This document shows positions 55,764 through 61,146 of a DNA stretch of 61,146 bases, piece by piece. The position numbers were made by a program, and so were the translations under genes. Position 1 is the first letter of the stretch. Each line of letters begins with the position of its first letter. Below the pieces are notes generated by a model. The model saw only the letters and a list, made by a program, of their open reading frames with translations, was not told the origin of the DNA and ran no database searches. Source of the stretch: Flavobacteriales bacterium (GTDB lineage: Bacteria > Bacteroidota > Bacteroidia > Flavobacteriales_D > UBA2798); contig JBKBUQ010000002.1 of NCBI GenBank assembly GCA_046289975.1, positions 1-61,146 of the forward strand, in the 5' to 3' direction.

Positions 55764-55847
55764 ATGTCACCGTTCACCGTTCACTGTTCACCGTTTACTG
55801 TTCACCGTTCACCGTTTACTGTTCACCTTTCACCATTTACTGTTCCC
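55764..55847. repeat. Heptamer tandem array (12 units of YGTTYAC-like) with 21-nt higher-order periodicity
   Basis: atgtcac cgttcac cgttcac tgttcac cgtttac tgttcac cgttcac cgtttac tgttcac ctttcac catttac tgttccc. Confidence 0.9.
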
Positions 55848-56885: not shown

Positions 56886-57577
56886 TGAAAAAAAACTGGC
56901 TGTTACCTGTTATTGCATTATTGCTCATCACCGGTGTGGGAATAGCCATTGCCGCATACATGAACAGTAAGGCCTACGAAGAGGCAGATGTGTTGCCGGT
57001 CTATAATCCATCCCAGGTGAATGATTCGCTGGTAGATCCATCCATGCACAATGTGGGAATGGGACACCGTGTGGGAGATTTTTCATTGTACGATCAGCGA
57101 GGTAGAACCATCACGCAAAAAGACCTGGAAGGAAAAATTTATGTCGCTGATTTTTTCTTTACCACCTGCAAAAGTATTTGTCCGAAAATGACATCACAAC
57201 TGCAGCGCATACAAGAAAAATACAAGAACAATGCACAGGTGATGATCCTTTCGCATACCGTTTTGCCCGAGGTCGACAGTGTTGAGACGATGATGAACTA
57301 CGCCATGCAGTACGGAGCGGATAACGACAAATGGTTATTTCTTACCGGAGAGAAAACGATGATTTATACCATGGCGCGGAAAAATTATTTCATCGTTAAA
57401 GAAGCCGAACAAGGTGGTGGCGACGGTGATGGCGATTTTATTCACACCGAAAATTTTGTACTCATCGATACCAAAAAACGCATCCGCGGATATTACGATG
57501 GCACCTCCAAAGAAGATGTAGATCGCTTGTTGGTGGATATGGATAAATTGTTGCGGGAGGAGGGCTTTCTTCGCTGA
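56882..57577 (+). CDS. SCO1/SenC-family thiol-disulfide/copper chaperone protein
   Basis: It has an N-terminal TM, the motif ADFFFTTCKSICPKM (CxxxC), and a downstream His context LSHTV. Confidence 0.85.
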   Translation: MMKKNWLLPVIALLLITGVGIAIAAYMNSKAYEEADVLPVYNPSQVNDSLVDPSMHNVGMGHRVGDFSLYDQRGRTITQKDLEGKIYVADFFFTTCKSICPKMTSQLQRIQEKYKNNAQVMILSHTVLPEVDSVETMMNYAMQYGADNDKWLFLTGEKTMIYTMARKNYFIVKEAEQGGGDGDGDFIHTENFVLIDTKKRIRGYYDGTSKEDVDRLLVDMDKLLREEGFLR

Positions 57578-57621
57578 AGCTTCCACCTTCGTTTCACTAC
57601 GGCGGACAAGAAGTCGGACAA

Positions 57622-57673
57622 GTGTGTAAGTGTGTTAATGTGCGAGTGTGCGAATGTGCGAATGTGCGAATGC
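57622..57673. repeat. Octamer tandem array (TGTGCGAA-like, about 6 units)
   Basis: gtgtgtaa gtgtgttaa tgtgcgag tgtgcgaa tgtgcgaa tgtgcgaa tgc. It is preceded by a duplicated CGGACAAG. Confidence 0.9.
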
Positions 57674-57909
57674 TGAAGACGGTAGTCTTATTCCTCACTT
57701 TTAGCTATGGCTGCTAAGGCTTAATTTTACCTCTAACCAAGACCTTCTGGTTGACACAGATGGACACTTCGACAGGGCATTACGGGTGGGGAAGGATGGA
57801 AGAGGAATATAACGAACTATAGGCTGTTAATATTAGATTTATCTGCTTTACACAAGGGAAATTTCTGATAGAATTTTGATTTTTGGTGGGCTTGAGGTAT
57901 CTTAATCCC

Positions 57910-58230
57910 ATGAAGGAAATTACAGAAGCGTTAGTAAAATTTCGTAATGAAAGAGATTGGGAACAATTCCACAATCCGAAAGATCTGGCAGTTGCTTTAA
58001 ATATTGAATCTGCTGAGCTTCTAGAGCTGTTTCTTTGGAAAAAACCGGAAGAAGCCAATTCAGAAAAAATCAAAGAGGAACTTGCTGATGTATTCGCTTA
58101 TGCTTTTTTGCTTGCGGAGAAATACAAACTTGATGTGAAAGATATTGTGTTGGAGAAAATAAAAAAGAATGGAGAGAAATACCCTGTTGATAAAGCAAAG
58201 GGAACTGCTAAAAAGTATGATGAGTTATGA
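57910..58230 (+). CDS. MazG-like nucleotide pyrophosphohydrolase (small all-alpha NTP-PPase, dCTPase-like)
   Basis: FRNERDWEQFHNPKDLAVALNIESAELLELFLWK...EELADVFAYAFLLAEKYKLD...KNGEKYP is the typical EExxE/ExxD MazG-like core. Its stop overlaps the next start (ATGA). Confidence 0.8.
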   Translation: MKEITEALVKFRNERDWEQFHNPKDLAVALNIESAELLELFLWKKPEEANSEKIKEELADVFAYAFLLAEKYKLDVKDIVLEKIKKNGEKYPVDKAKGTAKKYDEL

Positions 58231-60275
58231 GTATGAATTTCGATCTTTCAATTGAGATTTCGGAGGAATATGATTTTAGCAGTGGTGGATTGTCGAAAAT
58301 AGAACAAAATCCATGGGTTAAAAATCAATGGCCTTTGGTTTATTTTATTCAGAATCGCAGTGAAAAACTAGCATATGTTGGTGAGTCTACCAATGCATCA
58401 AGTCGATTTAAGAATCACCTTTCAAATCCACAGCGATTAAAACTTAATAAGATCTCGATTATAGGATCAGATAAATTCAACAAGTCTGCAACACTAGATC
58501 TTGAGGCAAATTTGATTCAGTATTTAACCGCTGAGGGAAGTTATAGTTTGCAAAATGGTAATCATGGCTTAATTAACCATAATTATTATCAGCAGGATTT
58601 ATATAAAAATTTGTTTCATGAAGTGTGGAAAAAGCTTCTGGAAAAAAAGATTGTTACAAAGACATTGTCTGAGATCGAAAACTCGGAGCTTTTCAAATAT
58701 TCTCCTTACAAAACATTAAATGAAGATCAGTTCAATTCTGTTCTTGAGATTTTGAATGGTCTTGTTGGAAAAAAGTCAAATCAGATATTTGTGAGAGGTT
58801 CTGCAGGAACTGGAAAAACAATTTTGGCCACTTATTTAATCAAGTTGTTAAACACCAATTTCGATGACAACCTTGATGATATTAATGAAAACGAATTAAC
58901 GGAGTTGAATTATGTCAGGAAATTTAGATCAAAATACCCAAATCCAAAAATTGGATTGGTTGTTGCAATGTCTTCGCTGAGAACTACACTGGAGAATGTA
59001 TTTAAAAACATGCCCGGTTTAAAGGCCACAATGGTAATTAGTCCGTCAGACACCTTTAAGTTAAAGGAGAAATATGACTTATTAATTGTTGACGAGTCCC
59101 ATAGGCTAAGGCAGTATAAGAACATTTCATGGCGAGGGGCGTTTAAAGCGAACAACAAAAAGTTGGGGTTGGGGGATGAGGGAAATGAACTCGATTGGAT
59201 TTTGGCAAACAGCAAAAATCAAATTTTCTTTTACGATTCAGCCCAAAGCGTTAAGCCTTCTGATATTTCTGAAAAGCATTTTAAAAAACTATTGGATAGC
59301 GATAAAAGCGTAAAGCTTGAGTTGAAATCACAAATGAGGGTTAAAGGTGAAGACAACAACAATTACATAAGCTTTGTGGATGATTTGTTGCATGTTAAAG
59401 CCGAAGAACAGGTTTTTTCTCCCAGAGGATATGATCTTTTGTTCTTTGATTCGTTTGAACAGATGTACCAAGAGCTTGCGAAAAAGGAAGATCAATTTGG
59501 TCTTTGCAGAATGGTTGCCGGTTATGCCTGGGAGTGGTTGTCAGATCCAAAAAGAAAGCCAAAGCCCAATGCAAATGTTACCGATTTTGATTTCGATGGA
59601 TTAAAATTCAAATGGAATTCAACACACATAGACTGGGTTAACTCTCCAAAAGCATTTAACGAGATTGGATGTATTCATACCACTCAAGGATATGATTTGA
59701 ATTTTACTGGGGTGATTTTTGGATGGGAAATTGATTACAATCCCCAAACGAATAGTATAGAAATTGATGCAACAAAGTATTTTGATAAATACGGTCGAAT
59801 AGGAGCAGATGAAACAGAACTCAGGAATTATATAATTAATATTTACAAGACAATTATGTTCAGGGGCGTCAGGGGGACATATGTTTATGCCTGCAATCCC
59901 AACATGAAAGAATATCTCAAAAGGCACATTGAAAAATTTGTACCCAGTATTGGAATAAGGTTTTTGGATTATGATAAAGTAAAACCATATGTTAATTCTG
60001 TTCCTTTTTTGGATATAAAAGCAGCAGCAGGAGGTTTCAGTGGTTTCCAGAACTACAAAGAGTTAAAATGGGTCGAGCTCCCTGATAATATCGCAGCCCG
60101 AATGGGCTACTTTGTTTGCCAGGTTGTTGGCGATTCGATGAACAAGGAAATTCCAAACGGCTCTCTTTGTCTCTTTAAACAGGACGAAGGTGGAAGCAGG
60201 AATGGAAAAATTGTACTTGTTGAATGTTTTGATATCCAAGATCCGGACACAGGCGCTTCCTTTACAGTAAAATAG
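58227..60275 (+). CDS. GIY-YIG nuclease / DUF2075 (Schlafen group-3-type helicase P-loop) / LexA-like S24 peptidase fusion protein, terminated by an in-frame TAG inside the S24 domain
   Basis: The N-terminus LVYFIQN-x7-AYVGEST..SRFKNH..LEANLIQ is GIY-YIG-like, as in the COG3410 family. The centre has FVRGSAGTGKTILATYL (Walker A), LLIVDESHRL (Walker B), IHTTQGYDLNFTGVIFG and MFRGVRGTYVYA. The C-terminus has KAAAGGF, QVVGDSMNKEIPNGSLCLF and FTVK (S24 cleavage-site, Ser and Lys motifs). Confidence 0.75.
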   Translation: MSMNFDLSIEISEEYDFSSGGLSKIEQNPWVKNQWPLVYFIQNRSEKLAYVGESTNASSRFKNHLSNPQRLKLNKISIIGSDKFNKSATLDLEANLIQYLTAEGSYSLQNGNHGLINHNYYQQDLYKNLFHEVWKKLLEKKIVTKTLSEIENSELFKYSPYKTLNEDQFNSVLEILNGLVGKKSNQIFVRGSAGTGKTILATYLIKLLNTNFDDNLDDINENELTELNYVRKFRSKYPNPKIGLVVAMSSLRTTLENVFKNMPGLKATMVISPSDTFKLKEKYDLLIVDESHRLRQYKNISWRGAFKANNKKLGLGDEGNELDWILANSKNQIFFYDSAQSVKPSDISEKHFKKLLDSDKSVKLELKSQMRVKGEDNNNYISFVDDLLHVKAEEQVFSPRGYDLLFFDSFEQMYQELAKKEDQFGLCRMVAGYAWEWLSDPKRKPKPNANVTDFDFDGLKFKWNSTHIDWVNSPKAFNEIGCIHTTQGYDLNFTGVIFGWEIDYNPQTNSIEIDATKYFDKYGRIGADETELRNYIINIYKTIMFRGVRGTYVYACNPNMKEYLKRHIEKFVPSIGIRFLDYDKVKPYVNSVPFLDIKAAAGGFSGFQNYKELKWVELPDNIAARMGYFVCQVVGDSMNKEIPNGSLCLFKQDEGGSRNGKIVLVECFDIQDPDTGASFTVK

Positions 60276-60434
60276 TATGCTAGTGTTAAGAGCCAAGACA
60301 AAGATGGATGGGCGCATGAAAAAATTGTGTTAAAACCACGTTCAACATATTCTACTTATAAAGATATAGTCTTAACTAAGGAAGATGTGTCATCATTTAA
60401 AGTAATTGGTTTGTTTGATCGTGTAATTTTATAA
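60276..60434 (+). other. In-frame continuation of the S24 peptidase domain beyond the TAG stop (52 codons)
   Basis: My hand translation in the same frame gives YASVKSQDKDGWAHEKIVLKPRSTYSTYKDIVLTKEDVSSFKVIGLFDRVIL*. This matches the usual LexA/UmuD C-terminal strands (..v.L.P.n..y..i.l......i.G.v..vi). Confidence 0.65.
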
Positions 60435-60436
60435 TT

Positions 60437-61017
60437 GTGCCGGTTCGGGTTATCATATTAATTTTCATTTTACCTTTCAGTGTATCCGCCCAATCCCAAC
60501 GGAACGGAGGAATAGAATCGCGGGTACATTTCAGTAAATCCTTCGGGTATGAATACGCTAATTTATTAACCGGAGCACTTGCTTTTGTACGATACAAAGA
60601 ATTAGAAATCTATTTCGGCTACAACACCACACCGCAAGGTCAATTCAAGTTTGATTTTTCTAATTCAGGCAGTTCGGTTGTTGGTCTTGATTTCGGTGGG
60701 AAATATCATCTTTTATCCAAAACAAGTAAAAGTCATTTTTTTGGAGAACTCAACACCCATCATCATCGTTTTGTAAACAATCGCTGCAGATATCCCTGTG
60801 GAATACATTCCAATCCTATTTATTACTCCCACGGTGTTGATAAAAAATGCAGCACCTCCAACATCCACCTCGCTGTCGGTACGAAACCTTCTTTACCAAA
60901 CGCATTTCATTACCGATCTCTATTGGTGGCGGAATTAGTCGCATCAACACCACTTCACTCAATAATCCCCACTCTCCGGTAACAAGTGGAATTTCATGGA
61001 TCTTTTCTCCCTTTTGA
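60437..61017 (+). pseudogene. Probable frameshifted outer-membrane beta-barrel protein gene
   Basis: The N-terminus (GTG start, signal VIILIFILPFSVSAQ, then beta-strand-like YFGYNTTPQGQFKFDF..GLDFGGKYHLL) degrades into implausible sequence (HHHRFVNNRCRYPCG). Another frame ends ...ISIGGGISRINTTSL..SGISWIFSPF*, which has an OMP-type terminal Phe. Confidence 0.4.
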
Positions 61018-61096: not shown

Positions 61097-61146
61097 GATA
61101 ACTAAATAACACTTAACTAATAACTAATAACTAATAACTAATAACT
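61097..61146. repeat. Heptamer tandem array (TAACTAA) running into the window edge
   Basis: ...ataacta aataaca cttaactaa taactaa taactaa taactaa taact; it is truncated by the window end. Confidence 0.85.

Follow-up and report, generated by a model that had tools for sequence, protein, structure and literature searches.

A two-gene cassette of Bacteroidota pairing a dCTP pyrophosphatase 1-like protein with a GIY-YIG nuclease, DUF2075 helicase and LexA-type S24 fusion protein, a candidate anti-phage module

The locus considered here lies at positions 57,910 to 60,434 of a 61,146-nucleotide (nt) stretch of DNA from a Flavobacteriales bacterium (contig JBKBUQ010000002.1, assembly GCA_046289975.1), hereafter called the window. 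It consists of two overlapping genes, the first encoding a small MazG-like protein and the second a fusion of a GIY-YIG nuclease domain, a DUF2075 helicase domain and a LexA-type S24 peptidase domain. The pair is a conserved two-gene module, and in the window it is a horizontally acquired cassette of low guanine-cytosine (GC) content inserted among housekeeping genes. On balance, the comparative evidence favours an accessory module that most likely acts against phages or mobile DNA and belongs to the same kind of nuclease-helicase as Nhi. While the combination of a nuclease with a DUF2075 helicase is already known, its S24-bearing, GIY-YIG-type and MazG-partnered form is new. The copy carried by the window itself has a premature stop codon within its S24 domain.

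The MazG-like open reading frame (ORF) runs on the forward strand from an ATG at 57910 to a TGA at 58228-58230 and encodes 106 amino acids (aa). The second ORF begins on the same strand with the ATG at 58227 and extends for 682 codons to an in-frame TAG (60273-60275), after which the frame stays open for another 52 codons until a TAA at 60432-60434, giving 735 codons in total. A previous description of this DNA, made from the letters alone and referred to below as the sequence-only reading, had proposed a 106-aa MazG-like gene, an ATGA overlap at 58227-58230 and a second product of about 735 aa if read through. These coordinates bear out all three proposals, with one internal TAG in the long frame.

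The linkage between MazG-like and DUF2075 genes supposed by the sequence-only reading extends well beyond the window. Relatives of the fusion gene were identified by sequence-pattern match in 329 genomes of a set holding one genome per species (185,579 species), and 80 loci were fetched, representing Flavobacteriales, Chitinophagales, Sphingobacteriales, Cytophagales and Balneola, with 59-69% identity across orders. The closest relative (97%) belongs to Flavobacteriales bacterium UBA2798. A MazG-like gene is located directly upstream in 79 of the 79 genome loci having upstream sequence, and its end abuts the helicase start (gap of 0-3 nt) in nearly all of them. When the flanking ORFs of the 80 loci were clustered, only the MazG-like and helicase genes were common to the loci. 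A second set of 80 loci, obtained from metagenomes and seeded from relatives lacking S24, has the MazG-like gene adjacent to the helicase gene in 77. At the protein level, a search of 5.8 billion proteins gave more than 6,000 matches, the best 120 of which are all 724-746 aa long and 65-97% identical over 98-100% of the query, and are annotated at most as "DUF2075 domain-containing protein". NCBIfam offers no meaningful family for either the MazG-like or the fusion protein.

The arrangement varies at individual loci. The sole genome locus in which the two genes do not abut carries a 619-nt repeat-rich insertion between them (L010:7386-8000), whose repeated unit encodes, in spurious ORFs of either strand, copies of the peptide MDIMSMR and which may be a small repeat element. 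Two S24-bearing copies (L143 and L147) have no detectable MazG-like gene in the locus. In the former (L143:4971-7157), a 728-aa GIY-YIG-DUF2075-S24 protein is encoded on a visibly higher-GC contig between MFS transporter-like and aldo-keto-reductase-like flanks, so the fusion also exists without its partner. A tandem arrangement (L110:2220-7226) comprises a MazG-like gene, a 790-aa ORF ending in S24 and, after it, another complete copy of 741 aa, and another locus (L121) shows an S24 match upstream of a complete MazG-like and fusion pair. Finally, the neighbour that ranks next in frequency is a protein of up to ~660 aa with N-terminal TPR repeats and an HExxH motif (HELVH), encoded immediately upstream of the MazG-like gene and on the same strand in 16 of the 80 genome loci (e.g., L003:1697-3670; also L006, L009, L013, L017, L028, L029, L052 and L054), being fragmented in some. 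Pfam recognises its TPR part alone, and it may represent the third component of a sub-variant.

All three domains that the sequence-only reading assigned to the fusion protein score above the Pfam cut-offs, and the two marginal ones, GIY-YIG and S24, are backed by profile searches, residue conservation and the predicted structure. The GIY-YIG match (PF01541, aa 37-98) is marginal at 23.7 bits, the cut-off being 22.6, while the residues Y39, Y50, G52, R60, H64, E93 and N110 do not vary among 14 close homologues and hardly vary among 77 diverse ones. The helicase domain (PF09848, SLFN-g3_helicase or DUF2075) spans aa 187-556 with 195.8 bits (E = 1.6e-57) and contains a Walker A motif, GSAGTGKT (K197), and a Walker B motif, LLIVDES (D289, E290). 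An AlphaFold2 model built on an alignment of 77 sequences reached a mean predicted local distance difference test score (pLDDT) of 88.8 and a predicted template modelling score of 0.76; it superseded a poor model based on the 14 close homologues (pLDDT 64, below 50 in the S24 domain), the Foldseek matches of which were uninformative. The N-terminal domain adopts a beta-beta-alpha-beta-alpha core (pLDDT ~90) and is followed by two RecA-like lobes of the helicase and a C-terminal domain, rich in beta strands, that is modelled with confidence. Foldseek placed this model closest to RecD2 (2.6e-10) and human SLFN11 (2.2e-9), then Upf1, Dda and Dna2, neighbours which mark the helicase as SF1B-like; SLFN14 is also among the top structural matches of the helicase.

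With the group III Schlafens (SLFN11, SLFN5 and SLFN14), the fusion protein shares only the PF09848 helicase domain, as its nuclease is of the GIY-YIG type. The label of a Schlafen-type helicase in the sequence-only reading therefore holds for this domain, yet the protein is not a Schlafen: a Pfam scan of the fusion protein found no Schlafen-core family, and the N-terminus is GIY-YIG. Work from 2025-26 on bacterial Schlafen defence concerns the ribonuclease domain, and one such paper contains no PF09848, S24, LexA or MazG.

The S24 assignment is likewise marginal in Pfam (PF00717, aa 598-685, 26.8 bits, cut-off 23.3), and a single-sequence search of the Protein Data Bank (PDB) with the S24 tail returned nothing relevant. 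A profile made from 22 diverse C-termini matched LexA of T. maritima (3k2z, 4e-11), LexA of E. coli (2e-8) and UmuD (2e-8) in the PDB, with lambda cI also among the matching S24 domains of solved structure. In these alignments, the motif KAAAG falls over the VAAG cleavage motif of LexA (VAAGEP, Ala84-Gly85), which makes Ala601-Gly602 the predicted site, GDSM (Ser637) falls over GMSM of LexA and GDSM of UmuD, and TVK (Lys682) over the TVK of LexA TVKRL. Across the 22 C-termini, the glycine of the site and the catalytic serine are invariant, the preceding alanine (or cysteine) is conserved and the lysine is nearly invariant, with arginine replacing it in one divergent member. The beta-domain is modelled with a pLDDT of 86-93 except for residues 600-608 and a dip near 671-680, and residues 600-608, which hold Ala601-Gly602, are the sole segment with a pLDDT below 50 besides residues 1-4. 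The likeness to LexA, UmuD and lambda cI thus comprises the S24 fold, a Ser-Lys dyad and an Ala-Gly (in some members Cys-Gly) loop N-terminal to the catalytic core. What precedes the cleavage site differs, being a helix-turn-helix DNA-binding domain in LexA and cI and a short arm in UmuD, whereas here it is a nuclease-helicase of ~590 aa.

Whereas the sequence-only reading treated S24 as an integral part of the protein, it looks like an optional regulatory add-on when relatives are compared. About 60 of the metagenome loci have S24, while ~13 end near residue 570 without it and keep the MazG-like partner. In a protein library clustered at 50% identity, 436 representatives matched at E <= 1e-30; among the best 150, about a dozen carry S24, and most are ~550-620 aa long and match the query only to about residue 570, being GIY-YIG-DUF2075 proteins that lack S24. 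The two forms are interleaved, e.g., P0128 lacks S24 at 53% identity and P0125 carries it at 44%. On a B. thuringiensis plasmid, a "nucleotide pyrophosphohydrolase" is encoded just upstream of an S24-less GIY-YIG-DUF2075 gene.

The same parts also occur in other combinations. Halomonas sp. PA16-9, a gammaproteobacterium, encodes the same trio (NZ_CP040452.1, L082:4266-7199) with another N-terminal domain and gene order: a DUF2075 protein with an apparently PD-(D/E)xK-type N-terminus, an S24 ORF in another frame, the frame change reflecting a frameshift or an error, and a MazG-like ORF downstream. This part of the record is unannotated. In addition, a profile search with the S24 tail found the same S24 subtype in fragments with PF11907 (DUF3427) on short metagenome contigs (P0361 and P0382). 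DUF3427 has been described in modification-dependent restriction enzymes. This co-occurrence suggests that defence-type proteins of more than one kind may bear the S24 tail and hints at a portable regulatory module for defence proteins that would sense RecA. Proteins of 150-190 aa that appeared to be a separate family of stand-alone S24 proteins were set aside, as the two on long contigs (L165 and L167) are fragments of broken fusion genes. Here, the fusion gene is split into 3-4 ORFs in Pedobacter sp. CG_S7 (L165:4059-6579) and in a bioreactor contig (L167:4052-6456), and the "S24 family peptidase / LexA" annotations of both loci in public records are pieces of these broken genes.

By homology, the small protein is a dCTP pyrophosphatase 1 (DCTPP1) homologue. 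It matches PF12643 (MazG-like) with 71.5 bits (cut-off 27), and residues 4-106 align, almost end to end, with the DCTPP1/RS21-C6 (XTP3TPA) structures 6sqw and 2a3q (E = 1.3e-17). The metal-binding motif EExxE...ExxD is present, and E33, E36, E57, D60, W17, W43 and Y64 all lie opposite identical residues in the DCTPP1 structures. Following the RS21-C6 structure papers, we assign the aromatic residues W17, W43 and Y64 roles in dCTP specificity, and together with the homology their conservation suggests that the protein may hydrolyse dCTP or 5-modified dCTP. It differs from DCTPP1 in being a bacterial 106-aa protein in an operon with a nuclease-helicase, and its activity on such substrates is predicted.

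The family behaves as an accessory, defence-like one. Only the two genes are conserved between loci, and the module has a lower GC content than its flanks in 72 of 73 genome loci, the mean difference being 6.5 points. The AT-rich context noted in the sequence-only reading fits this pattern, with 35.4% GC in the module and 43.5% in the rest of the window, a difference of 8 points. At other loci, the nearest and second-nearest neighbours give strong PADLOC matches to mREase_IV (1.5e-239), SoFic (2.4e-112), mad3 (3e-58), LmuB (6.8e-46) and PbeA (1.1e-33), along with PDC-S05, S23, S26 and S41, and Pfam identified IS200 transposase, Fic and HTH_3 neighbours. Decayed copies are surrounded by defence-island genes, either PLD-helicase-DUF3427, HNH, AbiEi_2 and integrase remnants or a PIN gene pair with ThiF/JAB/E2 genes. 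Relatives were not found in viral contigs, and phage records gave only four weak matches lacking S24; these searches speak neither for nor against a defence role, and a phage origin of the module is not supported by them.

The surroundings within the window are of another nature. The upstream genes encode KDO8P synthase, a KpsF-like SIS/CBS isomerase, TetR, carbonic anhydrase, SulP, DUF3078 and SCO1, and PADLOC matches among the 43 other window ORFs were of helicase and polymerase types only, which we attribute to cross-matching by ordinary proteins of replication and repair. The order DUF3078-SCO1-module is found in the two closest contigs as well, and homology to them ends at 60521. With housekeeping flanks and generic cross-hits, the defence-island setting that the sequence-only reading ascribed to the window is not supported; its suggestion of running PADLOC gave no defence genes beyond cross-hits in the window, yet strong matches near relatives elsewhere. 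The flanking repeats it described are there as tandem microsatellites (57620-57672 and 61098-61146), but no direct repeats bracket the module. Neither a tRNA nor bracketing direct repeats that would mark the boundaries of the element were found around the module in the window.

The closest validated systems by architecture are Nhi of S. epidermidis (SERP2475), a PD-(D/E)xK nuclease joined to a DUF2075 helicase that protects staphylococci and limits phage DNA accumulation, and the "Nhi-like" single protein of B. cereus SG141, which has the same organisation and verified defence activity (Millman et al. 2022). These proteins share with the window-type protein an N-terminal nuclease and a DUF2075 (PF09848) SF1B helicase in one polypeptide, as well as a patchy, horizontally spread distribution; like them, the window-type protein is encoded near defence genes at several loci. 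Yet the nuclease of Nhi is of the PD-(D/E)xK type and not GIY-YIG, similarity is limited to part of the helicase (3e-12, aa 271-417), and neither Nhi nor Nhi-like has a LexA-type S24 C-terminus. In addition, Nhi acts alone, whereas the module described here has a near-obligatory DCTPP1-like operon partner. That pairing also has a precedent, as a supplementary candidate named "Pyrophosphatase" (Millman et al. 2022) joins a small MazG-like pyrophosphatase and a DUF2075 protein into one candidate system. Its representative SG192 from Bacillus firmus, a 98-aa pyrophosphatase with a 643-aa DUF2075 protein, was marked "x", and SG193 from B. thuringiensis was marked "Cloning failed", so the MazG-DUF2075 pairing had been noticed and tried once without success. 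The window MazG-like protein shares 48% identity with the SG192 pyrophosphatase, whereas the SG192 DUF2075 protein differs in its apparently PD-(D/E)xK-type N-terminus and its lack of S24. The sequence-only reading knew of no characterised system of this make-up; given the validated nuclease-DUF2075 proteins and the pyrophosphatase-DUF2075 candidate, the module is less novel than that reading supposed. No paper mentioning both DUF2075 and MazG was found in the literature, and no description of an S24 fusion to DUF2075 was found, including in the DUF2075 literature since 2022; the two papers containing both DUF2075 and S24 describe no such fusion.

Several results weigh against a role in defence. 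PADLOC 2.0 has no match for the MazG-like protein and only partial matches of the fusion protein to Nhi (3e-12, best stretch aa 271-417) and AbiO (9e-12). The defence matches among neighbours elsewhere are plain matches uncorrected for genomic background, and the module lies among housekeeping genes in the window and its two closest relatives. Furthermore, the "x" of SG192 is read as no defence, meaning that a related pair gave no protection in one screen.

If the module does act in defence, its two products could cooperate as follows. The DCTPP1-like enzyme would hydrolyse dCTP or 5-modified dCTPs, while the translationally coupled GIY-YIG/SF1B enzyme would translocate on and cut foreign or replicating DNA. 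RecA-ssDNA filaments arising from phage replication or DNA damage could stimulate self-cleavage at Ala601-Gly602, detaching a dimerising or autoinhibitory S24 domain and thereby switching the state of the nuclease-helicase. In LexA, the N-terminal fragment is degraded after self-cleavage, and the switch might work in either direction here, with cleavage activating the enzyme or marking the N-terminal fragment for degradation. The pyrophosphatase, in turn, might act on the dCTP pool, e.g., by removing the modified dCTPs with which phages escape nucleases. It could be speculated that the S24 autoprotease serves as a built-in sensor of infection or DNA damage, that RecA-triggered cleavage licenses the nuclease-helicase and that the obligate DCTPP1-like partner destroys modified dCTPs and so blocks the escape of hypermodifying phages, but this full scheme is tentative and has only a modest chance of being correct.

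The same chance, about, attaches to S24 not being a RecA sensor at all: it may be a constitutive dimerisation domain or scaffold, or cleave itself independently of RecA, with sensing located in the helicase as proposed for Nhi. LexA and UmuD both dimerise through their S24 domains. The S24-less relatives retain their MazG partner, which implies that the core functions without S24, and some of them are closer to the query than S24-bearing ones (P0128 compared with P0125); the divergent member with arginine for the catalytic lysine points the same way. Yet the Ala/Cys-Gly site, the serine and the lysine are kept almost without exception across the 22 diverse C-termini, which would be unexpected for a purely structural role, and the model places the cleavage site in a flexible loop, as in LexA.

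It is rather unlikely that the module instead serves DNA damage or replication stress, where a self-cleaving helicase-nuclease triggered by RecA would act on stalled or damaged forks alongside a house-cleaning dCTPase, resembling UmuD activation and DCTPP1. The S24 domains of LexA, UmuD and lambda cI are tied to RecA and DNA damage, and these are the solved structures matched here. The homology to DCTPP1, described as a pool-sanitising enzyme, is clear, and SLFN11, which is structurally close to the helicase, reportedly acts on cells whose replication is defective. The lack of phage protection by the related SG192 pair and the housekeeping flanks in the window would also agree with such a role. 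Against it stand the patchy phyletic spread despite ~60-69% identity across orders, the consistently lower GC content than in the flanks, the lack of conserved synteny, the frequent position of copies beside restriction, Lamassu, PbeA, SoFic and Abi genes, and the tandem paralogues and decayed copies, as well as the fact that the validated relatives nearest in architecture serve in defence. Least probable is a selfish cassette resembling a toxin-antitoxin pair, in which a nuclease-helicase toxin and a coupled upstream MazG-like neutraliser would persist by addiction on mobile DNA: the small upstream gene with a 4-nt overlap in nearly all loci, the failed cloning of the homologous SG193 pair, frequent gene decay and a composition like that of mobile DNA would fit, but the metal-binding and aromatic residues matching DCTPP1 argue for an enzyme rather than a mere binder, the gene order is reversed in Halomonas, the S24-bearing copies of L143 and L147 have no detectable MazG-like gene, L110 has a 790-aa S24-bearing ORF between the MazG-like gene and the second full copy, and no DNA-binding autoregulator is present.

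In the window copy, the S24 domain is broken. One G>T substitution accounts for the TAG at 60273-60275, where a contig that is 96-97% identical has GAG (Glu683), the sequence at this position being ...GTAAAAGAGTATGC in that contig (L001) and ...GTAAAATAGTATGC in the window. The 97% identical protein (P0001) is intact, with 735 aa and Glu at position 683, and homologues with an unbroken gene measure 729-746 aa. The stop falls one residue after the catalytic Lys682 and removes the last 53 residues of S24, leaving the nuclease and helicase whole; the complete S24 module that the sequence-only reading saw at the C-terminus is thus present in relatives and not in the window copy. Recoding of TAG was rejected as unlikely, since TAG terminates two of the 43 other window ORFs and relatives carry Glu at this position. 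With the nonsense codon directly after Lys682 and 53 residues lost, the S24 switch of this copy is, judging from the sequence, almost certainly disabled. There is a smaller chance that the TAG stems from faulty sequencing or assembly or belongs to a minority allele, in which case the organism has an intact 735-aa gene. Such an error would require a single base change, the downstream frame is open with 49 of 52 residues matching the 97% relative, and the fetched loci contain 137 intact, full-length copies and just one other copy with an in-frame stop. Yet genuine decay of the fusion gene is documented at other loci, and polished assemblies seldom contain substitution errors that introduce a stop codon. 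The window copy therefore represents a recent nonsense allele or, less likely, a base-call error; it would be either a pseudogene of young age or a truncated variant with a defective S24 domain.

Should the proposed scheme be true, a defence effector would be switched by the same RecA-triggered self-cleavage that governs the SOS response and the induction of prophages, giving a direct mechanistic link between DNA-damage sensing and bacterial innate immunity. It would also provide a testable rationale for the link between a dCTP-pyrophosphatase-like enzyme and DUF2075 nuclease-helicases in different phyla, a pairing shortlisted but never explained (Millman et al. 2022). A RecA-type self-cleaving switch on an immune-type effector would be unusual and directly testable, although the single test of a related pair came out negative. 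Hundreds of Bacteroidota species carry the family, cultured strains of Flavobacterium, Pedobacter and Aquirufa among them, which makes experiments feasible; intact operons are present, e.g., in Flavobacterium hydrophilum (L044), Pedobacter suwonensis DSM 18130 (L046) and Aquirufa echingensis. For the window itself, the message is more modest, namely a low-GC cassette among housekeeping genes whose S24 domain is truncated by a nonsense codon.

The positions of the features discussed are collected in Table 1. The evidence for the promoter-like site listed there is weak: such sites are as numerous in the region as expected from shuffled sequence, and promoters of Bacteroidota deviate from the sigma-70 consensus.

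Table 1 Features of the two-gene module, in window coordinates.
Feature	Position	Strand	Basis or remark
Promoter-like site, TTTACA-16 nt-TAGAAT, TG before the second hexamer	57847..57874	+	36 nt 5' of the MazG-like ATG; weak
Gene for MazG-like, DCTPP1-like all-alpha NTP pyrophosphohydrolase	57910..58230	+	PF12643, DCTPP1 structures
ATGA start/stop overlap coupling both genes	58227..58230	+	ORF coordinates; abutting genes in relatives
Nuclease-helicase-S24 gene as carried in the window, 682 codons, premature TAG end	58227..60275	+	
GIY-YIG nuclease domain, aa 37-118	58335..58580	+	PF01541, conserved residues, AlphaFold2 core
DUF2075 / SLFN-group-3-type SF1B helicase domain, aa 187-556	58785..59894	+	PF09848, Foldseek
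S24 (LexA/UmuD-type) peptidase domain, aa 591-735, interrupted by TAG	59997..60431	+	PF00717, PDB profile match
Predicted self-cleavage site Ala601-Gly602, motif KAAAG	60027..60032	+	LexA alignment
Predicted catalytic Ser637 codon (GDSM)	60135..60137	+	LexA/UmuD alignment
Predicted catalytic Lys682 codon (TVK)	60270..60272	+	LexA alignment
Premature TAG; Glu683 GAG in close relatives	60273..60275	+	Comparison with P0001 and L001
Orphaned 3' S24 coding frame, 52 codons + TAA	60276..60434	+	49/52 residues as in P0001

Downstream of the module, the window encodes a 181-aa ORF (60437-60982) with a signal-peptide-like N-terminus and without a Pfam match, which may be the neighbouring pseudogene mentioned in the sequence-only reading. 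Since similarity to the two closest contigs breaks off at 60521, within this ORF, close relatives differ in the region 3' of the module. On the other side, an 8-nt tandem repeat (AATGTGCG / AAGTGTGT, ~4-6 copies) occupies 57620-57672 in the spacer that separates the SCO1 gene from the module and marks the point where similarity to the closest contigs breaks (57561-57645). A 21-nt tandem repeat with a 7-nt sub-period (3.7 copies, 91% match) lies at 55767-55845 between the SulP and DUF3078 genes, and a 7-nt tandem repeat, ATAACTA, in about seven copies at 61098-61146 reaches the last base of the window.

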